Assembly (NCBI GenBank): GCA_041665405.1 | Contig: JBAYIZ010000006.1 | Span: 407 to 64,406, forward strand | DNA length: 64,000 nucleotides | Reading direction: 5' to 3' | Source: Candidatus Magasanikiibacteriota bacterium | GTDB lineage: Bacteria > Patescibacteriota > Patescibacteriia > Magasanikbacterales > GWA2-37-8 | Part shown: one piece after another, positions 10,770 to 64,000 of the stretch | How the letters are laid out: the number at the start of each line of letters is the position of its first letter | How positions within the stretch are numbered: the first letter of the stretch is position 1 | The notes under the pieces: model-generated | Databases searched by the model: none | Told to the model about the DNA's origin: nothing | The model's input: the letters and a program-made list of their open reading frames with translations, nothing else | Made by a program: the position numbers and the translations under genes

Positions 10770-11006
10770 ACTAATTATATTTAAGCCAATACTACGCTAT
10801 TTTGCACAAAAAATCAAGACAAACAAAAAACTTCCTATAAGAAGAAGTTTTTTCTATTCTCATGTCGTTAACAACAACAGGAAAATGGATGCCTGCTTTT
10901 TTGTACCGTGAGCGCAGGCGAATCTCACATATTTTCCTTGCGGCGACTAGCCACGCATTAATCACATGCGCAACTTATCAAGCCGAATTGTGTTGGTACG
11001 GCGCGA

Positions 11007-11420
11007 TCAGCGCGCCTTGGGGGCGGCTGCTTCTCGCAGTTCGGCCAGCTTCCTGTCTACCTTTGGGGTGCCGAGGTGTTGCTTGGCCGCGAACACGAGC
11101 TTTGCGCGGGCAGATTGCACCGCCCTGTTCGAAGGACGACGGCCGGGTGGAGTCAAAGCCACCACCGCCTGCAACATTGCCTCCGTCGTCTGCTCGTCAC
11201 CCTGCTTGTACTCCCTGAGCGTGAACAGGACCTTCTCCACCTTCTCGTGGAGATCCCAGGACTCGCGCCAATACGGCCTGTCTTCGCCGGAATGGAACTT
11301 GTCGAGCATGGAGTGAGCCCTCCTCGACCTGAAGTAGCAAAGGACCAACACAAGCATCGACACGATGTTCACCGCAACACTGATACTGTGCCACATAGAA
11401 ATCCCCACTTCCTTCACCAT
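11007..11420 (-). CDS. small single-pass membrane protein encoded in G+C-rich islet 1
   Basis: The frame has G/C-rich third positions. It has an N-terminal TM segment (ISMWHSISVAVNIVSMLVLVLCYF) and a helical charged tail. The start could be ATG 11420, or ATG 11396 (preceded by AAGGAAGTGG). The track start at 11486 is probably an over-extension. Confidence 0.5.
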   Translation of the reverse strand: MVKEVGISMWHSISVAVNIVSMLVLVLCYFRSRRAHSMLDKFHSGEDRPYWRESWDLHEKVEKVLFTLREYKQGDEQTTEAMLQAVVALTPPGRRPSNRAVQSARAKLVFAAKQHLGTPKVDRKLAELREAAAPKAR

Positions 11421-11571
11421 TGCTGACGAAGATGTTAGCTCTCTAGTTGGCGCGGGATGACACATCCACGCCCTTGCGACAAGCAAGCGGCAGCCCAGCT
11501 ACCTCTACTTTTTCCTTACCAAAAGAAAAACTAGCCGTAGCTTGGCCAAAATATATTTCAAAGAACGTGTA

Positions 11572-23159: not shown

Positions 23160-23348
23160 CTCCACAAACAAAAACATCCCGACTAAATCGAGATGTTTTA
23201 TTTTTAAAGCGTTTATATCACTCGCACAATCTGAAAACAAATTTTATTTTCAAATTGCGCGGCGAGTGACATCTACCGCGTCTGCCCCACCGCCCGCTTG
23301 TAGCGAGTGGGGCTACGATGGCTAGTCTCTACAAATTAGCCCTTCCAT

Positions 23349-23822
23349 CTAGAAGGTGCCCGCCCCCAAGGCGAGTTGGACCTCCCATCCGAAGGAGTTC
23401 TTCTCCACGACGTCCTGTTGCCAGCCGACAGGGGCTTTCAGGAAAACGCGGGCACGCCACAGCTTCATACTGACCATCGGACCAGCCCCGTACAACAGCC
23501 CGTCGTTGCCCTTCTGTCCAGAAAGGACCCCGCCGAAGTTGAACGTGAGCCCATCAACGATCACGTCATAGGTGACGCCGTAGGCCATGCCGTAGCCCGA
23601 TACTTGGGTCGGAACCCAGAACTGGGCGAAGTGGGTCGTGTGACCATCCGGCTGGACCAAGTAGAGGCCCATGCCGATGTCGGTGCCGTCCTCAAACCCG
23701 GCGTGTTGCACGAACAGGCCGGCCCCACCAGTCTCCGGACCAGGACCCTCAGCCAGGGCGACTGAAGGAACTGCGAAAAGGACGACGCTCACGATGACGA
23801 AAAACCACGCGATGTGCTTCAT
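23349..23822 (-). CDS. secreted small beta-barrel-like (OMP-like) protein encoded in G+C-rich islet 2
   Basis: ATG 23822 is preceded by GGAG at 7 nt. Signal peptide is MKHIAWFFVIVSVVLFAVPSVALA|EG. It has Gly/aromatic-rich alternating strands and a C-terminal ...LALGAGTF. Third codon positions are G/C-rich. The track start at 23957 lies in the AT-rich leader and is probably spurious. Confidence 0.6.
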   Translation of the reverse strand: MKHIAWFFVIVSVVLFAVPSVALAEGPGPETGGAGLFVQHAGFEDGTDIGMGLYLVQPDGHTTHFAQFWVPTQVSGYGMAYGVTYDVIVDGLTFNFGGVLSGQKGNDGLLYGAGPMVSMKLWRARVFLKAPVGWQQDVVEKNSFGWEVQLALGAGTF

Positions 23823-23994
23823 GGATTTACTCCGAAAACTAGAGTTCATCGGTACCCAGCCGACACACCACGCGACAATCATTGTCGAGAGGTAAGGGTG
23901 ATTATTTATTCCTATATACATTAGAAATACATAATTTCCTTTACCTCTTTGAGACATTATTTATCCATTATAATTTAAAAAGAACTAACTGAAC

Positions 23995-24060: not shown

Positions 24061-24207
24061 CTACACAGAACTAGTCCTAAACCATCGTATGTATCTGATA
24101 CTTTGGCTAGGGGCGGACCAAAAGAATCGTGGCTGATTATATATGGTCAGTTTTTTTGTTATATTAAATCCGGCAAATCATCTAAGATTAGCCAAATTAA
24201 TTAAATT

Positions 24208-30949: not shown

Positions 30950-31105
30950 CTTGCTTTTTGGCTAACCAAAGCCAGTTTTATGAATAAAAAAAGATACCTT
31001 CGTTGGGTACCCCTCCCTTAATACCGCATTATTGTAGGCCAAAAAGGCAAGTTTGTCAACAACGAAGGGGCGTAGTATAATGTAAGATATAATAATCAAA
31101 AATTC

Positions 31106-35047: not shown

Positions 35048-36172
35048 TTATTGTCTTATCGGCATCACTATATAAACAAAACTGTCGTCGTTGGTTGGTA
35101 CAAAGAGACACGGGCTGTCTGCGTTTATCATTTTCAGCATACTGGTTTCTGATTTAATATTATTTAAACCATCCAAAACATATCGGTGGTTCAACATAAT
35201 AGCATTGTCGTCGCCGTTTGTTTCCGCACTTATTTCAGAACTATATTCACCCGTCTGGGAAGAAGTGGAGGAAAGTTTTACGACGCCTTCTTTACTACTA
35301 ATTATACAAGATATAGCGTTTACACCTATTGTGGTAAACAAACTGGCCATTTTAATTTCTTTACTCATCTTTCCAGTATCAAACATCGCAGATGTTTTGA
35401 ATTCTTTTGGTATAATTTGTGCATAGTCTGGATAATTTCCTTCTACTAAGCGAGAAACTAGTTGAATATTACCGTAGTGCATAGCAATTTGATTCTCTCC
35501 AACTAATATTCTAACGTTTTTTTCTTTTTCTTCATTATCCGCTAACGACAGTATGTGGATTATTTCTTGAGCAGTTCTACCCGGAACAATAATTTTAAAA
35601 TCTCCTTCTCCTTGTTGAATTTTAATTTTCTTTTCAGCCAATCTATAACTATCTGTAGCCGCCAATATTAAACCGGCATAATATGAAGTATTAAATCCAA
35701 AATACATTCCTGATAATTCCGGTCTTATTTCTGATTTAGCCAAAGAGGAAACAGTTTGTCCTAGTCCGCTCTTTAGTTGTTCTGCATCAAACAAAAATCC
35801 ATTTCCATCACTTACAGAAGGAATAACTGGAAATTCGTCAGCTGGTATTCCTTTTATTTTCGTTGATGATTTTCCACAGGTTATAACTAGCTCATTTTCT
35901 TTTAATTCCATTTCAATCTTTTCGTCAGAAAGTAAACTAACAAATTCACTAAGTGTTTTGGAAGGAACTGTAAACGAACCAGATTCATCCACTTTTGATC
36001 TCACGTGAGCAACTATTGCCAATTCTAGATTGGTTGCAATTATTTCTGTTTTTTGATCATCTGCTTTAATCAATATATTTCCCAGTATTGGAAGATTCAC
36101 ATTTTTATTTGCTATCCCTCCTACTATAGAAAGTGCTTTCGATAAATTATCTTTTGTACAAGTTATTTTCAT
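35048..36172 (-). CDS. dnaN: DNA polymerase III beta sliding clamp
   Basis: 374 aa, three-domain clamp pattern, located downstream of dnaA. Confidence 0.92.
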   Translation of the reverse strand: MKITCTKDNLSKALSIVGGIANKNVNLPILGNILIKADDQKTEIIATNLELAIVAHVRSKVDESGSFTVPSKTLSEFVSLLSDEKIEMELKENELVITCGKSSTKIKGIPADEFPVIPSVSDGNGFLFDAEQLKSGLGQTVSSLAKSEIRPELSGMYFGFNTSYYAGLILAATDSYRLAEKKIKIQQGEGDFKIIVPGRTAQEIIHILSLADNEEKEKNVRILVGENQIAMHYGNIQLVSRLVEGNYPDYAQIIPKEFKTSAMFDTGKMSKEIKMASLFTTIGVNAISCIISSKEGVVKLSSTSSQTGEYSSEISAETNGDDNAIMLNHRYVLDGLNNIKSETSMLKMINADSPCLFVPTNDDSFVYIVMPIRQ

Positions 36173-36447
36173 AAAGGATGGTGCGGGTTACATTATTTAA
36201 TTAAGTATATATATAAAATAATAATAGTAATAAGGCTGTGGAAAGGGTTAATAAGTCGTTTTTTGTTTTCAAATTAGCCAAGTTTAAGGTGAATAATTTT
36301 TTAACAGTTTGGTATAAAAGTGTGTGTGAAAAACGATTTATTTAAGTTTATTTATTTTCTGTTGATAAGTGGTTGACTTGTTCTTTTTATATTAACAACT
36401 TATTAACATTCTTTGCACACCATTTAGCGAAGAAAAAAAACCATGTT
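36173..36447. other. oriC candidate, part 1 (dnaA-dnaN spacer): AT-rich unwinding region plus degenerate DnaA boxes
   Basis: 275-nt noncoding spacer. AT-only tract at 36205-36232. TGTTGATAA (36360-68, 8/9 match to TGTGGATAA) and TGTGGAAAG (36237-45). Confidence 0.55.
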
Positions 36448-37842
36448 TTAGATATTATTGATATATAAACGCTGTCTTATTAATTCTAGTTCTTGTTTTA
36501 GTTTTAAATCATTATCTATTTCTTTGGTAATTTTTTCGTTGGCATGCATCGCTGTGGTGTGATCGCGTCCGCCCAGCTCATCGCCAATGGAAGGGAAAGA
36601 CATTTTAAGATCATTACGCAAAATATACATAATAATCTGGCGAGGATAAGAGAGCTTCTTTTCTCGGCTTTTACCACAAACATTTTCGGTGGAAACATTG
36701 AAAAAGGTGCAAACAGTCTCTATGGTCTGTTGTGATGTGACTGAACGTCTAGCCGAAGCAGAATCAAAACTAGAAAGAATTGATTTTACTGATTCGGCTG
36801 TCGGGGCCATATTTTTTAATTGATGATAAGCAATAATTTTATTTAGGGCGCCTTCAAGCTCACGAATGTTGCTCTGAACAATAGTAGCAACTGTATTTAG
36901 GGTTTTGTCGTCCAAAACAAAATTCTTTTCTTGGCACTTTTTGCCCAAAATAGCGACACGTGTTTCAAAATCAGGGGCAGAAACATCCACAATCATTCCC
37001 CACTCGAAGCGAGATTTGAGGCGATCCTCAAGGGCAGGGATGGCTTTTGGTGGGCGGTCAGAAGTTAAAATTACCTGCTTGTTTGCCTGGTGGAGCTCGT
37101 TAAAAGTATGAAAAAACGATTCTTGGCTGGCATCTTTGCCAGCGATGAACTGAATATCATCAATTAACAAAGCGTCGATAGTACGATAGCGGTTTTGGAA
37201 GTCTCTCGCTCCACCACTACGCAAAGAAGTAATAAAATCGTTGGTAAATTTCTCAGCACTAACATACAAGATATTGGTTTGAGGGTTTTTTTTCAACAAT
37301 TCATTGCCAACCGCCTGTAAAAGATGGGTTTTCCCCAAACCTACACCACCGTAGATAAACAGTGGATTGTAGGCCTCACCAGGACGGTCTGCCACTGCCT
37401 TGGCGGCGGTGAAAGCCAATTCGGAGCCTTTGCCAACCACAAAACTATCAAAATTGTATTTTGGGTTAATGGTAAATCCATGAGAAGCGACAGATTGGTG
37501 ACTAGTTTGTTGAGAGTATGAAGGTGTTTTTTCGTTTTCATGAGATACCGACGGGGAAGGAGGGGTGTTTATTGGTTGTTCCACAACATTTTTGATATTT
37601 TCGATCTTGTATTCCATCCTTCTAATAGGAAGGGCGGTGACCCTCTCTAAAGATTGGATGATTTGGTGGTGGTGTTTTTTTTCAATCCACGCCTGATTAA
37701 AGGTGTTTGGGACGCAGACAATAACATGGCCTTCTTGAAAACTAACAATACCAGTATTTTTGAACCAGGTGTTAAAATTCGCTTTGGAAATGGTTAATTC
37801 TAATTCAGATAAAACAGCCTGCCAAATTTCATTATTAGTCAT
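36448..37842 (-). CDS. dnaA: chromosomal replication initiator DnaA
   Basis: AAA+ Walker A GGVGLGKTHL, a sensor region, and the C-terminal DnaA signature (GGRDHTTAMHA). Confidence 0.96.
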   Translation of the reverse strand: MTNNEIWQAVLSELELTISKANFNTWFKNTGIVSFQEGHVIVCVPNTFNQAWIEKKHHHQIIQSLERVTALPIRRMEYKIENIKNVVEQPINTPPSPSVSHENEKTPSYSQQTSHQSVASHGFTINPKYNFDSFVVGKGSELAFTAAKAVADRPGEAYNPLFIYGGVGLGKTHLLQAVGNELLKKNPQTNILYVSAEKFTNDFITSLRSGGARDFQNRYRTIDALLIDDIQFIAGKDASQESFFHTFNELHQANKQVILTSDRPPKAIPALEDRLKSRFEWGMIVDVSAPDFETRVAILGKKCQEKNFVLDDKTLNTVATIVQSNIRELEGALNKIIAYHQLKNMAPTAESVKSILSSFDSASARRSVTSQQTIETVCTFFNVSTENVCGKSREKKLSYPRQIIMYILRNDLKMSFPSIGDELGGRDHTTAMHANEKITKEIDNDLKLKQELELIRQRLYINNI

Positions 37843-44157: not shown

Positions 44158-44271
44158 ATATGTATGATTAAAAATACTTCGCAATATTATCTTAAAACAC
44201 AAAAAAAGTCAATTTTATGGCTGTGGTATTGCTTTTTTGAGGATGTTGGTGTATATTTTTTAAATCCACCC

Positions 44272-44529
44272 GTGGCCAGGTCGTGTTATATAGACACAGC
44301 CTCGGCGACTATAGCGAAAGAGGGGAAACCATGGCGCGAGCCAAACCGGCAACGGACACGTGTTGAGGTACATGTTCGATTCCAGTTCAACCTCAGGCCG
44401 CAACAACGGGCTGAGGAGGCCACGCAGAAGGCCAAGAAGTGGCAGAGGGACAACCCGGGCTGGGGCTGTGATCCCAACCCCACGACGATCGGCAACGGCT
44501 ACGCTACCTTCAGGGCTCGTCGCACCTGA
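44272..44529 (+). pseudogene. G+C-rich islet 3 ORF with unresolved start (possibly frameshifted or a gene fragment)
   Basis: G/C-rich third positions mark this frame from about 44380 to TGA 44527-29 (...QQRAEEATQKAKKWQRDNPGWGCDPNPTTIGNGYATFRARRT). The only SD+ATG (GAGGGG-N6-ATG 44331) is in another frame and stops after 11 codons. The in-frame candidates are GTG 44272, or the AT-rich extension at 44149. Confidence 0.3.
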
Positions 44530-44660
44530 CGACGATCAACCTCTTCGACGCACACCCCCAGTCGAGCACAAGTTGCTCCTGGGGGCGGGGCTTAGATGAA
44601 ATTATCCTTCCTGTCCTAAGTAGAAAAAATATTTTCTTTTTAGGACAAGGATAATTTCTT

Positions 44661-48453: not shown

Positions 48454-48482
48454 TTGACTTTGTGTTTTTTATCAAGTAAAAT
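48454..48482 (+). promoter_or_regulatory. sigma70-type promoter reading into G+C-rich islet 4
   Basis: TTGACT-17 nt-TAAAAT. The composition switches to G+C-rich about 6 nt downstream. Confidence 0.6.
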
Positions 48483-48576
48483 ATTTTTGTGTCCCAAACG
48501 ACCGACGGTTCGCCGTTCGGTCACAACGACCACTTGCACCGCTCATCGGTGGTGGTCTCGAAAAGGAGAGAGAGCC

Positions 48577-48798
48577 ATGCGTGTGCTTCCCTCGATCCTG
48601 AACCAGAGCCGGAGACGGAGCGACAATTCCGCCGATTGCGGGCAGGTCGCGAGCTCCGAGGCCGACTTCATCCACAGGCAACTGCTCGAGCATGGCTTCT
48701 GCTCGGACATGAAGGAGGGCGCCGTCGGCACCGCCAACATGGTCGGCATCGTCTGTTCGACCGCGGCCGGCCGCGGAGCAGTAGTCCTCCTGGTGTAG
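48577..48798 (+). CDS. 73-aa protein of unknown function encoded in G+C-rich islet 4
   Basis: AAGGAG sits 8 nt before the ATG. By my codon-by-codon read, G/C at codon position 3 is very high in this frame only. Sequence: MRVLPSILNQSRRRSDNSADCGQVASSEADFIHRQLLEHGFCSDMKEGAVGTANMVGIVCSTAAGRGAVVLLV. Confidence 0.55.
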   Translation: MRVLPSILNQSRRRSDNSADCGQVASSEADFIHRQLLEHGFCSDMKEGAVGTANMVGIVCSTAAGRGAVVLLV

Positions 48799-48827
48799 GG
48801 CTCAGCTTCGTACGAGACAACCAGTGC

Positions 48828-48881
48828 GGCCGGACCGGGAGCTCCTTCGGGGGTTTCTGGTCCGGCCGTCGTTTCCTTTTT
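48828..48881 (+). terminator. GC-rich hairpin terminator after the islet 4 ORF
   Basis: GGCCGGACC...GGTCCGGCC (9 bp), followed by gtcgTTTCCTTTTTATT. Confidence 0.55.
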
Positions 48882-48962
48882 ATTATATTTAATACTCAAA
48901 GCGGGTATTTTTTTATTGCTCAAAAAAGGGTTTGCGTGTAAAATAAGAACGAATAATATTTT

Positions 48963-55485: not shown

Positions 55486-56220
55486 ATGGAAAATTTGAAT
55501 ATTCTAAAAGAACTCGGTTTAGACGACCAAGAAGCGAGTGTATATATGGCTTTATTAAAATTGGGTGGATCTCAAGCCAGTGTTGTAGCCAAAGATGTTG
55601 GCATTAAACGGACAACAGTTTACCCTGTTTTGCAGGCGTTGGCGGCCAAAGGGATGGTAAATGTTTATTTTCGAAAAAACCGCCATTTCTATTATGCTCA
55701 AAAACCAAATAGAGTGGTGGGTATTTTCAAAAAGAAAATAGAATCATTTGAAAGTATTATTCCAATGTTGGAACTAGTTGAAAAAAAACAAGTGATGGCC
55801 ACGGGTTTGCGCTTTATTGAAACAGTTGAAGAATTAAAACAATTTTATAACGGAATTTTAGATGAGTATAAAGGGAAGCAATATCTGGCAATTGGAAATA
55901 CGGCGGCATGGGAGGGATTGGAACCAGAATTTTTTGTAAACTTTCGTAGACAAAGAGCAGAAAATAAAATTAAAACGAAATTACTATTAACATTTAATTC
56001 TGTCGAAATAAATCCAATAGAAACCTCGCTATTAAGAGAGTGGAAATATCTTCCTGAAAAATATAAATTTCAAAGTACGATAGATATTTTTAATGATAAA
56101 ATTTTGATTGTGAGTCCGGAGCTAAGTTCGTTGGCGGTGGTGATCGCGGTGCCGGCGATGACGGATATTTTTAAATCTGTTTTTGAGATGTTGTGGCAGA
56201 TGTTGCCGGAGGTGAAATAA
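55486..56220 (+). CDS. TrmB-family winged-HTH transcriptional regulator (paralog 1, short form)
   Basis: N-terminus LKELGLDDQEASVYMALLKLGGSQASVVAKDVGIKRTTVYPVLQALAAKGMV. A TTGACA-17-TAAAAT promoter lies at about 55413-55441. Confidence 0.8.
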   Translation: MENLNILKELGLDDQEASVYMALLKLGGSQASVVAKDVGIKRTTVYPVLQALAAKGMVNVYFRKNRHFYYAQKPNRVVGIFKKKIESFESIIPMLELVEKKQVMATGLRFIETVEELKQFYNGILDEYKGKQYLAIGNTAAWEGLEPEFFVNFRRQRAENKIKTKLLLTFNSVEINPIETSLLREWKYLPEKYKFQSTIDIFNDKILIVSPELSSLAVVIAVPAMTDIFKSVFEMLWQMLPEVK

Positions 56221-56226
56221 TTAAAA

Positions 56227-56261
56227 CAAAAAACCGATTGCAATATGCAGTCGGTTTTTTT
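56227..56261 (+). terminator. conserved terminator shared by the TrmB-like modules (copy 1)
   Basis: AAAAAACCGATTGCaataTGCAGTCGGTTTTTTT. Near-identical copies are at 61129 and 63042. Confidence 0.8.
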
Positions 56262-61118: not shown

Positions 61119-61128
61119 AATTTAAAAA

Positions 61129-61162
61129 CAAAAAACCGATTGCAGATTGCAGTCGGTTTTTT
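61129..61162 (+). terminator. conserved TrmB-module terminator (copy 2)
   Basis: AAAAAACCGATTGCagatTGCAGTCGGTTTTTTG. Confidence 0.8.
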
Positions 61163-61308
61163 GATAACTTCTTGAGCTCAACAAGATGTTGGAGTGAATG
61201 AGCGGTCACTACCAGCCGCGTGACTTTTTGTTTTACCGGTAGTCACAAACCGGATGATCCCAGACCCCTCATCAGCGGACCATTGAATTGTCCTGAAACT
61301 TTGCACCT

Positions 61309-61707
61309 CTACGCCTGTTCGCGACAGGGCAGGCATTCGTAGCCCACCCAAAGGCCGTTGGCAAAGGTGAAGTCGAAGTCCCAGCGGTTGTCACCACCGT
61401 ACCAGCAGAGGCTGGCAGTGTATTTGAATCCATTGGGGGCGAGAAGAGTGGTGCCAGTGAGCACGATCTTCTTCTTACGCATTTTCATCGGAATCTGGTC
61501 TTGGTGGTCAAGCAGTTGCTGGCCGTCACGCACTCCAAGGACGCCATTCCGACGACGTGCGCGTTCGCGCAATTCGGAGCCCTTGATGCATTCCTCGCCA
61601 CGCTTGAGGCACGACTCGATCCGGAGCTTGTTGATGTGAAGATCTGCAATTGGATCACAGTCTTCCACAACCTTAAACTCCACCCTGTTCCAAACGAATG
61701 TATTCAC
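61309..61707 (-). CDS. 132-aa cytoplasmic protein of unknown function encoded in G+C-rich islet 5
   Basis: The GTG start is preceded by AAGGAGG at 6 nt. The frame is open across the whole G+C-rich segment. No signal peptide and no family recognised. Confidence 0.6.
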   Translation of the reverse strand: MNTFVWNRVEFKVVEDCDPIADLHINKLRIESCLKRGEECIKGSELRERARRRNGVLGVRDGQQLLDHQDQIPMKMRKKKIVLTGTTLLAPNGFKYTASLCWYGGDNRWDFDFTFANGLWVGYECLPCREQA

Positions 61708-61775
61708 CTTTCACCTCCTTGCGGTTCTGACAGGTTGGTTGCTCTGAAGAGAGCAATTGTTGTTAACAACTCAAT

Positions 61776-61804
61776 AAAATATCATATTTCACTTTATTGG
61801 TCAA
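61776..61804 (-). promoter_or_regulatory. sigma70-type promoter reading into G+C-rich islet 5
   Basis: Minus strand reads TTGACC-17 nt-TATTTT. It is homologous to the islet 6 promoter. Confidence 0.5.
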
Positions 61805-61865
61805 TCATTTTATCCCTAAAATTAGCAAAAAAATCAGATAAAAGCTGACAAAATTATGTTGGGGG

Positions 61866-61894
61866 TTGACTTTTTGGCTAAATTCATATAAAAT
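61866..61894 (+). promoter_or_regulatory. promoter of TrmB-like paralog 3
   Basis: TTGACT-17 nt-TAAAAT, followed by the shared TCATAAATAATATGAcAAT-ATG leader. Confidence 0.6.
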
Positions 61895-61918
61895 AATCAT
61901 CATAAATAATATGACAAT

Positions 61919-63031
61919 ATGTTAGAACAAAAACTAGAAAAACTTGGTTTTGGAAAAAACGAAGTGAAAGTATATCTAGCTCTTTTTGATTTGGGTAAAT
62001 GTAAAGCCAAACAAATCATTGATAACACAGGTCTTCATCGTAATCTTGTCTACACGGCACTTGATGATTTGATTGGAAAGAAATTAATTTCAAAAGTCGA
62101 GAGTAATGGAATTTTTTTATTTTGGGTTAATAGCCCTGAACTTTTGAACGAAATAATAGAAGAAAAAGCTATAACGGCAAAAGAAGTGATTGAACAATTA
62201 AAAAAGAAAAGCGCCAGTCAACCTCGTGAGATATTAATTTATGAAGGTGAAGAGGGTGTGAAGAAAAGTCGCACCAAAGTTTTAACATATGGAAAAGGAG
62301 ATACATTTTATATGTTAGGAACAAAAGCGAGTTTCTCGCCTTCGATGGAAAAATTTTCAAAGGAGTTTGATTCGCTAAGAATTAAAAAGGGAATTTATTC
62401 AAAAATTTTAGTCGAACATGATGTGAATAAAGATGAACTTAAACATCTTAATAAAATGCCACTTAGTGAAGCCAAGCACCTTCCTCTTGATTTGGAAATG
62501 CCTATTTGGTTTTCAGTTATTCAAGATTATTTGGAAATTGGCATCCCAGGCGTTGATCCACTGATTTTTTCGATAAAAAATAAAGCGGTGGCTGGGGCAA
62601 TAAAAAAATTTATAGATTTTTTCTGGAATCAAGAATCCGAAGTTGTTACAGGCGCAAAGGCTTTACAAGAGATTATGTTGGAATCCATTGATTATGGTGA
62701 GTTGAAAGGTATCGGCGCAAAAGGCAATTTTTTTGAAAATTATCCGGGATTTTTTAATGATATAAAAAAGCGAGCAGTAATGAAACAAGGACTGGTCTGG
62801 AGAAACATTGTTGATCCAAGTATGAAAGGGCATGAGATTACAAAATTTTTGTGGACTAAAACAAAATATAATTTATCCGATACAAAAAATCCCAATGTTG
62901 TTTGGTTGTATGGCCCGAAAGCTGTGATTATAAATTGGGCGGATAAAGAACCTGTGATGTTTGTTTCTACAAATAAGGCGCTAGTGCAAAGTTATAATGA
63001 TTATTTTGAGGAGATGTGGGGTAAAGATTAA
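61919..63031 (+). CDS. TrmB-like wHTH regulator with a large C-terminal domain (paralog 3)
   Basis: N-terminus MLEQKLEKLGFGKNEVKVYLALFDLGKCKAKQIIDNTGLHRNLVYTALDDLIGKKLI. Confidence 0.75.
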   Translation: MLEQKLEKLGFGKNEVKVYLALFDLGKCKAKQIIDNTGLHRNLVYTALDDLIGKKLISKVESNGIFLFWVNSPELLNEIIEEKAITAKEVIEQLKKKSASQPREILIYEGEEGVKKSRTKVLTYGKGDTFYMLGTKASFSPSMEKFSKEFDSLRIKKGIYSKILVEHDVNKDELKHLNKMPLSEAKHLPLDLEMPIWFSVIQDYLEIGIPGVDPLIFSIKNKAVAGAIKKFIDFFWNQESEVVTGAKALQEIMLESIDYGELKGIGAKGNFFENYPGFFNDIKKRAVMKQGLVWRNIVDPSMKGHEITKFLWTKTKYNLSDTKNPNVVWLYGPKAVIINWADKEPVMFVSTNKALVQSYNDYFEEMWGKD

Positions 63032-63041
63032 CACTAAGAAC

Positions 63042-63075
63042 AAAAAACCGATTGCGATATGCAGTCGGTTTTTTA
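63042..63075 (+). terminator. conserved TrmB-module terminator (copy 3)
   Basis: AAAAAACCGATTGCgataTGCAGTCGGTTTTTTA. Confidence 0.8.
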
Positions 63076-63168
63076 ATTACTTCTTGAACCAAAATGATTT
63101 AGTTCGAAAAGTAGCTGCGCGTCTTTTTGACCGGGACGCGCAACCGGGTGAGAGGGTGGAACCGGACG

Positions 63169-63660
63169 TCACAGGAATGCGATTCCCAGTGACGGCTGGA
63201 ACAGCAACGAGTAATCGCCGCCATCCAGGGTCTTCGCCAGTCCAAATGCCATGGACAGCGACAGACCGTTTCCGATTCCGTAGGCCAGGCCGGTGCCCAG
63301 ACCAACCAAGTCGGAAGACGGCTTGCCGCCGTAACCGACATTGCGCTGGTAGAGCACGCTGGCCTGGGTGGACCAACGATCAGTCAGTCCCAGCGACACA
63401 CCTGCAGAGAGGCGTGGGCTGGGCTTGCAACTGTCGTTGGGGGTGGCCAGCCCGATTCCGCCCGCGATGGACACCTTGTTGGAGACCTTCTCCGACAGCG
63501 AGATGTCGTAGCGGGTGGAGGCCGAGGCGGGGGTGAGCCCGTCCTTCAGGAGGACGACGTAGCCCTCCCGGATGTTGAAGACCGGGGTCAGGGCGCTGGC
63601 CGAAGCCGAGACACCGCTCAGAACCACGGCCACCAGGACGATCAGGGTGGAGATCTTCAT
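63169..63660 (-). CDS. secreted small beta-barrel-like (OMP-like) protein encoded in G+C-rich islet 6
   Basis: GAGGTG lies 4 nt before the ATG. Signal peptide is MKISTLIVLVAVVLSGVSASASA|L. The protein has Gly-rich alternating strands and a C-terminal ...QPSLGIAFL. Confidence 0.6.
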   Translation of the reverse strand: MKISTLIVLVAVVLSGVSASASALTPVFNIREGYVVLLKDGLTPASASTRYDISLSEKVSNKVSIAGGIGLATPNDSCKPSPRLSAGVSLGLTDRWSTQASVLYQRNVGYGGKPSSDLVGLGTGLAYGIGNGLSLSMAFGLAKTLDGGDYSLLFQPSLGIAFL

Positions 63661-63736
63661 GGGACACCTCTGCAGACCAGAAGGCCTGCCATCTGCATTA
63701 GTCAGTCAGGTTGCATTTGCGAACCCATACTGCTTT

Positions 63737-63786
63737 TGCCAGACGAAATAGTTCACAATAGATCTTATGGACTATTTCGTCTGGCA
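63737..63786 (-). promoter_or_regulatory. 16-bp perfect hairpin in the 5' leader of the islet 6 gene
   Basis: TGCCAGACGAAATAGT-N18-ACTATTTCGTCTGGCA lies between the promoter (63829-57) and the ATG (63660). No T-run follows it. Confidence 0.5.
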
Positions 63787-63828
63787 GTTGTAAAGAACAG
63801 TGTTACGGGTTATTGATCGTAACAAGCC

Positions 63829-63857
63829 AGTATATCATATATTTGTATACTTGTCAA
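63829..63857 (-). promoter_or_regulatory. sigma70-type promoter reading into G+C-rich islet 6
   Basis: Minus strand reads TTGACA-17 nt-TATACT. Confidence 0.6.
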
Positions 63858-63920
63858 GGGTTTTTTGGCTAAAACTAGCTAAAAACAAGCATAAATAAGG
63901 ATGACAAAAAAATCATAAAC

Positions 63921-63949
63921 TTGACAAATTTGGCTAATCATAGTATAAT
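63921..63949 (+). promoter_or_regulatory. promoter of TrmB-like paralog 4
   Basis: TTGACA-17 nt-TATAAT, followed by the shared TCATAAATAATATGAtAAT-ATG leader. Confidence 0.6.
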
Positions 63950-63975
63950 AATATTGTCATAAATAATATGATAAT

Positions 63976-64000
63976 ATGTTAGAAAACGAGCTTTTAAAAC
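63976..64000 (+). CDS. start of a fourth TrmB-like paralog (truncated by the window end)
   Basis: ATG TTA GAA AAC GAG CTT TTA AAA gives MLENELLK, compared with MLEQKLEK in paralog 3. The upstream region is homologous. Confidence 0.5.

Follow-up and report, generated by a model that had tools for sequence, protein, structure and literature searches.

The DNA analysed here is a 64-kb stretch (the window, by which we mean the whole of it) from a Candidatus Magasanikbacteria genome of the Patescibacteria, or candidate phyla radiation (CPR). Its overall GC content is 38%, and six short tracts within it reach 53-58% GC. The last of these, islet 6 (63061-63780, 58% GC), has sharp edges and carries on its minus strand an open reading frame (ORF) whose product is identical to one annotated as hypothetical in a Candidatus Magasanikbacteria metagenome-assembled genome (MAG), with a gene of the TrmB family, TrmB3, transcribed divergently from it. 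The sequence of islet 6 and its junctions to the AT-rich flanks are identical on an NCBI MAG, a JGI contig and a Logan contig, and these three independent assemblies rule out an assembly chimera. The rest of the window comprises typical CPR core genes, including dnaA/dnaN, tgt, uvrD, rpsL/fusA, polA, type IV pilus genes and genes for PBP1, trigger factor and an H+-PPase. Islet 6 is best explained as a complete, independently transcribed gene unit of this genome. Taking all of the evidence together, we consider it probable that the unit is a paired gene encoding a beta-barrel protein of outer-membrane-type fold, preceded by a leader that acts as RNA, controlled by its TrmB-family neighbour and transcribed into a GC-rich messenger. 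Its features, in window coordinates, are as follows.

63042-63074, both strands: bidirectional intrinsic terminator (A-run, stem, T-run) common to the barrel gene and the convergent TrmB2 gene
63093-63135, minus strand: terminator-like hairpin of the barrel gene (GUUGCGCGUC...GACGCGCAGC, then UACUUUUCG, a short U-run)
63169-63660, minus strand: coding sequence of the barrel protein, 163 amino acids (aa)
63592-63660, minus strand: signal peptide, residues 1-23, with N-terminus MKISTLIVLVAVVLSGVSASASA and predicted cleavage between ASA and L
63665-63670, minus strand: Shine-Dalgarno sequence GAGGTG, 4 nucleotides (nt) before the ATG
63703-63732, minus strand: leader helix H3, an irregular 12-bp hairpin (GCAGUAUGGGUUCGCAAAUGCAACCUGACUGC)
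63737-63786, minus strand: leader helix H2, a perfect 16-bp stem TGCCAGACGAAATAGT/ACTATTTCGTCTGGCA with arms at 63737-63752 and 63771-63786
63801-63824, minus strand: leader helix H1, a 7-bp hairpin TGTTACG/CGTAACA at the predicted 5' end of the mRNA
63829-63857, minus strand: predicted promoter of the barrel gene, sigma-70 type (TTGACA, a 17-nt spacer with TG extension, TATACT; 11 of 12 consensus positions)
63864-63872, minus strand: TTAGCCAAA box, a candidate regulator site 6 nt upstream of the barrel -35 element
63921-63949, plus strand: predicted promoter of TrmB3, a perfect consensus match (TTGACA-17-TATAAT)
63929-63937: second copy of the TTAGCCAAA box, in the spacer of the divergent TrmB3 promoter
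63953-63975, plus strand: near-palindromic 5' untranslated region (UTR), ATTGTCATAAATAATATGATAAT, ahead of TrmB3
63976 (start; block 63921-64000), plus strand: divergent partner gene TrmB3, 650 aa, running past the end of the window (full gene on contig L002)

As GC-rich DNA here yields long ORFs in several frames, the barrel ORF was tested against its ortholog on a Logan contig (L001), which is 78% identical to the window copy in both protein and DNA. The differences number 27, 17 and 54 at codon positions 1, 2 and 3, respectively, and the ratio of non-synonymous to synonymous substitution rates (dN/dS, or omega) is 0.23. Judged by these substitutions, the ORF is shown to be a real gene under purifying selection, and a spurious reading frame is excluded. 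An earlier, sequence-only reading of the window had described an ORF at these coordinates with a signal peptide, Gly-rich strands and a C-terminus ending in SLGIAFL, all of which stands. Judged by eye, the signal peptide begins basic (MK), continues as a hydrophobic core of 15 residues and carries ASA ahead of the predicted cleavage site; an equivalent N-terminus is found in nearly all full-length members of the family. The -35 and -10 elements of the putative promoter are conserved in seven related loci (L001, L010, L131, L132, L133, L134 and L007), the -10 region of the barrel gene reading ATGTGATATACT across loci. Transcription is predicted to start at about 63822, which would give a leader of about 160 nt (fold z = -7.1 against shuffled sequences). 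Orthologs carry a purine-rich equivalent of the Shine-Dalgarno sequence, and the pairing of the 3' hairpin is kept in L001 and L010 through compensatory changes. A near-identical bidirectional terminator of 40-50 bp (AAAAAACCGATTGC..GCAGTCGGTTTTTT) follows three TrmB-family paralogs in the window (56222-56260, 61123-61175 and 63036-63079). We also considered a leader peptide, and rejected it: the short upstream ORF (AUGGGUUCG...) is not conserved, lacking an AUG in L131 and being frame-shifted in L001.

We retrieved 11 distinct loci encoding the barrel, and in 11 of 11 a TrmB-family gene lies directly upstream and divergent, with one small ORF intervening in L007. TrmB3 matches PF01978 with 42.8 bits against a cut-off of 25.6, and all of the partners score similarly (E-values of 1e-10 to 1e-12). 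They form one orthologous group that is distinct from the paralogs TrmB0, TrmB1 and TrmB2 of the window, with identities to TrmB3 of 88% (L001), 51-54% (L010, L131, L132 and L134) and 36-44% (the remaining loci). The last 9 kb of the window contain four TrmB-family genes, starting at 55486, 59949, 61919 and 63976.

The intergenic region between the divergent genes is likewise conserved. TTAGCCAAA boxes occur at the same two positions in L010, L132, L134, L006 and L007, and a palindrome, TGTCATA-N-TATGACA, lies between the -10 element and the ATG of the TrmB gene across loci. A near-palindrome of the form ATTGTCATA-N5-7-TATGACAAT fills the short 5' UTR of the partner at most loci (the window, L001, L010, L131, L132, L133, L134 and L006); this is likely an autoregulatory operator. 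This design, with a box by each divergent -35 element and a palindrome, is conserved in AT-rich and GC-rich genomes alike. From the layout, we infer that the TrmB partner would regulate both itself and the barrel gene through the two divergent promoters. The window contains 10 copies of the TTAGCCAAA sequence where 1.45 would be expected; in this lineage it may serve as a regulator box or as an element associated with promoters. Its other copies are at 61873-61881, 24188-24196, 30957-30965 and five further positions, some of them upstream of TrmB2, and one copy stands 12 nt before the start of rpsL. The partners resemble the archaeal sugar-responsive regulators TrmB and TrmBL1 (PF01978) in their N-terminal winged helix and in the conserved palindromic boxes of their own promoter region. 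Unlike those regulators, they are bacterial (CPR), have C-terminal domains without a Pfam or PDB match that are duplicated in the forms of 515-650 aa, score far below the cut-off of the NCBIfam equivalogs, and have as their presumed target an envelope-protein gene rather than sugar metabolism.

The barrel gene differs from its surroundings in base composition. CTG accounts for 75% of its leucine codons (native genes, 6%), AAG, ATC and TAC each reach 100%, and its GC content at third codon positions (GC3) is 0.82 in the window compared with 0.27-0.31 for the flanking genes. The excess recurs in eight AT-rich genomes (barrel GC3 of 0.47-0.82 against 0.20-0.42 for the partner), among which the barrel proteins are only 33-53% identical, and it is missing only from genomes that are GC-rich as a whole. 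Had there been a single old transfer, it would have ameliorated over such divergence, so some force maintains GC at the synonymous sites. The GC-rich tract spans the transcribed region from H2 to the terminator, including the 3' hairpin, and excludes the promoter; we favour selection on the transcript as the force that keeps it. When changes were polarised with L010, an outgroup too distant to rely on, they ran toward AT in L001 (24 versus 10), whereas GC was maintained in the window (16 versus 9). Repeated transfer among Patescibacteria is an alternative source of the excess.

Another explanation attributes the GC-rich coding sequence to GC-biased gene conversion at a recombination-prone locus for a surface protein, or to slow translation through rare codons in aid of Sec export, with no role for transcript stability. 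Codons ending in G or C are indeed rare in this genome, and the L010 and L131 loci retain 82-95% nucleotide identity in their flanks, leader and terminator, compared with 57-70% in the barrel ORF. Moreover, omega for the barrel is 0.23-0.27, that is, 5-6 times the 0.035-0.057 of its neighbours. However, it is dN alone that is higher, and dS is not clearly elevated (0.60 versus 0.88 for TrmB1 between the window and L001; 1.29 versus 0.96 for the neighbours between L010 and L131), giving no sign of allele replacement; replacement of a hyper-diverged ORF by another allele in L010 or L131 was rejected on the same ground. The excess divergence is located in the signal peptide and the residues predicted to face lipid and not in the loops, and the GC-rich tract extends beyond the coding sequence, into the 3' hairpin and, starting at H2, the untranslated leader. 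Given these observations, we regard an origin by conversion or translational pacing as unlikely.

The leader of the barrel gene is predicted to fold into three helices. H1 begins 0-2 nt from the predicted start site and contains the GTTAC-N12-GTAAC motif (63802-63823) that the sequence-only reading had pointed out along with the perfect 16-bp stem of H2; it recurs in L010 and L131 with G-U changes. H2 extends to 22-nt arms with 91% complementarity, forming a duplex of about 21 bp here (16+5 bp) with a fold energy of -31.4 kcal/mol (z = -8.8 against shuffles), and it is unique in the window even when 3 mismatches are allowed. H3 is the part of the leader most conserved in sequence, being almost invariant between the window and L001. 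L010 and L131, whose proteins are 52-53% identical, have the same promoter, H1 (GTTACG...CGTAAC), spacer UUCUUUACAAC, H2 and H3. We examined covariation in the set of four sequences formed by the window, L010, L131 and L001. RNAalifold returned 38 pairs, 10 of which show double changes: six in H2 (of its 16), three in H3 and one in H1. In H3, 3 of the 12 pairs are compensatory, and 97.9% of its cells are paired; over the leader, 94.7% of cells are paired, versus 26-43% when the partners are slid by 1-3 columns, and none of 500 shuffles reached the observed values. By this comparative measure, H1-H3 are shown to be maintained by compensatory changes in the subclade of the window. A fourth hairpin just upstream of the ribosome-binding site was discarded, as its sequence differs in each ortholog and its z-scores are -0.2 to -0.6 against shuffles.

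Several other roles for H2 were considered. The mRNA-sense sequence after the stem is AAAAGCAG and that of the other strand is GTTGTAAAG, neither with a T-run or U-run, and a terminator scan of the window did not report H2. A role as terminator or attenuator is thereby ruled out, in agreement with the earlier view of the stem as an element for processing, stability or protein binding, which also fits its conserved position in the leader and its compensatory changes. That the stem might simply belong to a repeat family had been raised as well; a dispersed repeat (repetitive extragenic palindrome or miniature inverted-repeat transposable element) or an integron attC site was rejected, since the arms of H2 are unique in the window and occupy the orthologous leader position in L010, L131 and L001. 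A scan of metagenomes for the 9+9 core TGCCAGACG-N24-54-CGTCTGGCA gave no barrel homolog and no leader similarity among the matches listed (at least 120 loci), all of which are unrelated sequences matched by chance. In Rfam, no model matched at the gathering thresholds, and only generic hairpins, far below the cut-off, appeared at E-values up to 10.

H2 might instead act as DNA, serving at +37 to +86 as an operator for a TrmB-family or other dimeric protein that blocks elongation. The window and L010 agree exactly in the outer 9 bp of each arm (TGCCAGACG/CGTCTGGCA), which suggests sequence-specific recognition, and a regulator gene lies 190 bp away. In addition, A-C mismatches on the sense strand correspond to G-U pairs on the antisense strand, so that the pairing could belong to either strand. 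Against this, the centres of the half-sites would be about 34-36 bp apart with a spacer varying in both length and sequence (18 versus 20 nt), an unusual arrangement for a dimeric helix-turn-helix protein, and pairing survives by way of G-U intermediates and double changes. The elements found near the TrmB gene throughout the family, namely the TTAGCCAAA boxes and TGTCATA-N-TATGACA, are also different from H2, which is present in one subclade only. An operator at this position is, in our estimation, decidedly improbable. We read the leader as a putative RNA element for transcript stability and/or processing of the RNase III type, by analogy with the ompA 5' UTR of Escherichia coli, a stem-loop stabiliser of mRNA with no terminator function. 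Both leaders are long (about 130-160 nt), precede the gene of a small outer-membrane barrel, have a hairpin at or near the 5' end and place further hairpins before the ribosome-binding site. They differ in that there is no sequence or Rfam relationship between them, that the stabilising function of the islet 6 leader is putative, and that H2 is a much longer, near-perfect duplex, nearer to an RNase III substrate and confined to one subclade of Magasanikbacteria.

The sequence-only reading had treated the islet 6 gene as cargo, and a recent acquisition from a GC-rich diderm, possibly the host, with the hairpin as a cassette boundary, would account for the high-GC codon usage and GC3, the sharp edges of the tract and the presence of five more GC-rich islets in the window, in a phylum where horizontal gene transfer is reported to be common (PMC12455944). 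We nonetheless hold this to be very unlikely: an exhaustive HMMER search across 1.84 billion representatives turned up just 35 clusters of relatives at E < 1e-3, every named one from Magasanikbacteria or other Patescibacteria MAGs; the pairing with an orthologous TrmB partner holds at every locus retrieved; dS resembles that of the flanks, making the gene neither younger nor older than they are; the GC3 excess persists in eight AT-rich genomes at protein identities where amelioration should have erased a single old transfer; and the promoter and leader are continuous with the native, conserved intergenic architecture.

Word-indexed searches had identified a single homolog of the barrel protein, and searching the genome collection with a narrow alignment (A5) added one locus, L010. 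Family members are mostly 156-230 aa long, with two fragments of 93-100 aa, and share the motifs EGY..FKDG..PG..STR, PNDxFKPxPR, LYQxNPxYxGKPxSH and QP....YTF. AlphaFold, which the sequence-only reading had proposed as a check on its suggestion of a barrel, gave a pLDDT (predicted local distance difference test) of 63 with two sequences; with a 33-sequence alignment it returned an eight-stranded barrel with strands of 11-15 residues, a pLDDT of 93.5 and a pTM (predicted template modelling score) of 0.80. The model of the 140-aa mature protein is a confident one, an up-and-down beta-barrel with 8 strands, of the OmpA/OmpX/NspA/PagL type. On each strand, one face has a mean hydropathy of 1.1-2.2, with aromatics and almost no charge, and the opposite face is 48-80% Gly/Ala/Ser/Thr. 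In comparisons of close orthologs, replacements are most frequent on the hydrophobic face (26-57% of sites, compared with 8-37% on the small face and 11-21% in the loops), and the signal peptide is also among the parts that changed most. A fast hydrophobic face and a slow small face are what one would expect if the former contacted lipid and the latter packed the lumen, and on this basis we infer that the hydrophobic face would be the lipid-facing side.

A soluble barrel of 8 strands, secreted and akin to lipocalins, avidin or YceI, that binds a hydrophobic ligand in order, for instance, to scavenge host lipids, would suit bacteria that are described as monoderm and without lipid synthesis (PMC11665869). 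However, the eight best natural matches are all membrane barrels, and the strands of the model are 11-15 residues long; only about 14% of residues in the mature protein are charged, and the non-hydrophobic face is built of small residues and not of charged ones. A soluble barrel with a hydrophobic core would also give the reverse of the substitution pattern, which favours a membrane-embedded barrel, and the sub-threshold Pfam matches among 33 members are all to membrane-barrel families (7 to OMP_b-brl, best E-value 6.8e-5, 3 to DUF2490 and 1 to Autotransporter). We therefore find a soluble protein most improbable. A profile search of PDB sequences returned nothing significant.

By analogy with the topology of outer-membrane proteins, the three most conserved connections, L1-L3, would share one end of the barrel, with the variable turns opposite, which suggests that the putatively exposed end with L1-L3 is a binding or active site. 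In L3, residues 115-117 of the window protein (alignment A3), most members have Ser/Thr-His (..KPxSH..), and the His is lost in the window subclade (..KPSSD..); if the family has a PagL-like enzymatic site, this subclade may differ from the rest. The islet 6 protein has the signal peptide, the mature length of about 140 aa, the 8 antiparallel strands of 11-15 residues, the alternating hydrophobic and small/polar faces and the aromatics at strand ends of the small 8-stranded outer-membrane barrels (NspA (1p4t), OmpX, the N-terminal domains of OmpA and OprF, PagL, OmpW and Thermus TtoA (PF13505)). Of 33 members of its family, 20 end in an aromatic residue, F or W, many as ..YTF. The islet 6 protein is only 9-14% identical to the known barrels and, unlike them, has a Pfam score below the cut-off, has loops that are short and most conserved as opposed to long and variable, has a TrmB-family partner, occurs in a phylum described as monoderm and, in the window copy, ends in AFL. 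UniProt automatically labels two Magasanikbacteria sequences (A0A1F6NVF7 and A0A1F6PDY4) 'Outer membrane protein beta-barrel domain-containing protein'; both belong to the family and fall in the cluster of P0006, which is about 40% identical to the window protein. The literature searched contained no definition of the family, no structure, no analysis of its genomic context and no discussion of it. Our verdict is that the protein is a new, uncurated and Patescibacteria-restricted variant of the small outer-membrane-barrel fold.

These observations can be joined into a mechanism, in which the TrmB partner would control both divergent promoters, and H1 at the 5' end together with the H2 duplex of about 21 bp would shield the transcript from decay that depends on the 5' end. 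H2 could also, or instead, serve as an RNase III-type processing site, as in the comparison with ompA above; either way, the leader hairpins would act on the RNA without terminating transcription. The same selection, for a transcript that is stable and structured, may also account for the GC-rich codon usage. Once exported and freed of its signal peptide, the barrel would enter a lipid layer with the conserved loops L1-L3 exposed. As Patescibacteria are described as monoderm (PMC11665869), with a monoderm wall in the few CPR organisms described (PMC8871954), this layer would be either the host outer membrane at the site of attachment or an outer layer of the symbiont that has gone unrecognised; another possible target is the outer face of the membrane that the symbiont itself has. 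The 64-kb window contains no Omp85, Lpt or Lol genes, and no paper on barrel proteins in Patescibacteria was present in the literature searched.

A number of points weigh against this interpretation. In a monoderm phylum there is no obvious membrane, and no obvious beta-barrel assembly (BAM) machinery, for such a barrel. The protein scores 19.4 bits against Pfam OMP_b-brl (PF13505), below the gathering cut-off of 28.7, its C-terminus in the window is ..IAFL and not aromatic (that of its ortholog is ..ITFP), and the proposed orientation is read from the patterns of composition and substitution. The promoter is known only as a match to the consensus, and the start site as a prediction. L001 carries a deletion of H1, and its H2 is weakened by three mismatches. 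The four sequences that show the covariation also served to derive the structure; a third homolog search, with alignment A5, found no further close relatives, and the leader analysis therefore rests on these four. Distant members (L132, L133, L004 and L006) have no H2 and instead have short leaders with unrelated 5' hairpins, making H2 a feature of the subclade that is not essential to the family. Finally, the link between the maintained GC content and transcript stability is a conjecture.

The five other GC-rich islets of the window (53-57% GC; 10861-11520, 23221-23920, 44241-44640, 48461-48940 and 61181-61740) are all intergenic among housekeeping genes, lying respectively between tgt and uvrD, between a response regulator gene and rpsL, upstream of tig, between tRNA-Cys and polA, and between TrmB1 and TrmB2. 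The measured ORFs of islets 1, 2 and 5 have GC3 values of 0.67-0.72. These islets may share whatever keeps islet 6 GC-rich. In islet 2, the ORF at 23349-23957 (minus strand; probable start 23819) encodes a signal peptide (MKHIAWFFVIVSVVLFAVPSVALA), alternating strands and a C-terminus ending in GAGTF, and a hairpin with 27-nt arms of 81% complementarity lies upstream of it (23888-23948). Islet 6 had earlier been taken for a second piece of outer-membrane-protein-like cargo dissimilar to that of islet 2. The dissimilarity is borne out, as neither BLASTP nor profile comparison found similarity between the islet 2 protein and the islet 6 family, whereas the term cargo does not fit a gene that is paired with a TrmB partner at all 11 loci and whose dS is not clearly elevated. 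The related genome L010 has at least one further GC-rich islet (901-1500) with a 220-aa ORF of GC3 0.68, and no relationship was detected between that ORF and the islet 6 protein. The putative gene of islet 5 (61309-61707, minus strand) encodes 132 aa from a GTG start with a GC3 of 0.67, has neither a signal peptide nor a Pfam match, and is divergent from TrmB2, mirroring the layout of the barrel gene and TrmB3. In L001, the 78%-identical relative, the barrel gene directly follows the TrmB1 ortholog, and the segment with islet 5 and TrmB2 (window 61119-63035) is missing there, owing to either an insertion in the window lineage or a deletion in that of L001. Elsewhere in the window, dnaN and dnaA (35048-37842) lie close to the minimum of the cumulative GC skew, and this is probably the region of the replication origin.

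A bolder version of our interpretation holds that this is a lineage-specific, vertically inherited outer-membrane-type barrel under a dedicated TrmB-like regulator, inserted in the host outer membrane at contact or in an unrecognised outer layer, and that selection at the RNA level keeps the GC content of its transcript and explains the other islets too. We put this forward as a possibility only, and a doubtful one. Three of the features described here, the obligate pairing with TrmB, the persistently GC-rich coding sequence and the covarying three-hairpin leader of one subclade, are undescribed in the literature searched. Patescibacteria, which live attached to host cells, account for much of bacterial diversity, and a conserved, regulated barrel of outer-membrane type would provide a concrete molecule with which to ask where a barrel goes in the absence of an outer membrane or BAM. 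The GC3 excess (0.65-0.82 for the barrel gene in genomes whose other genes are near 0.3), persisting across saturated synonymous divergence, would likewise offer a clean example in nature of mutational bias being opposed by some force at synonymous sites. To our knowledge, almost no RNA regulation has been described in Patescibacteria, and the leader of the barrel gene adds a candidate cis-acting RNA element for this group.

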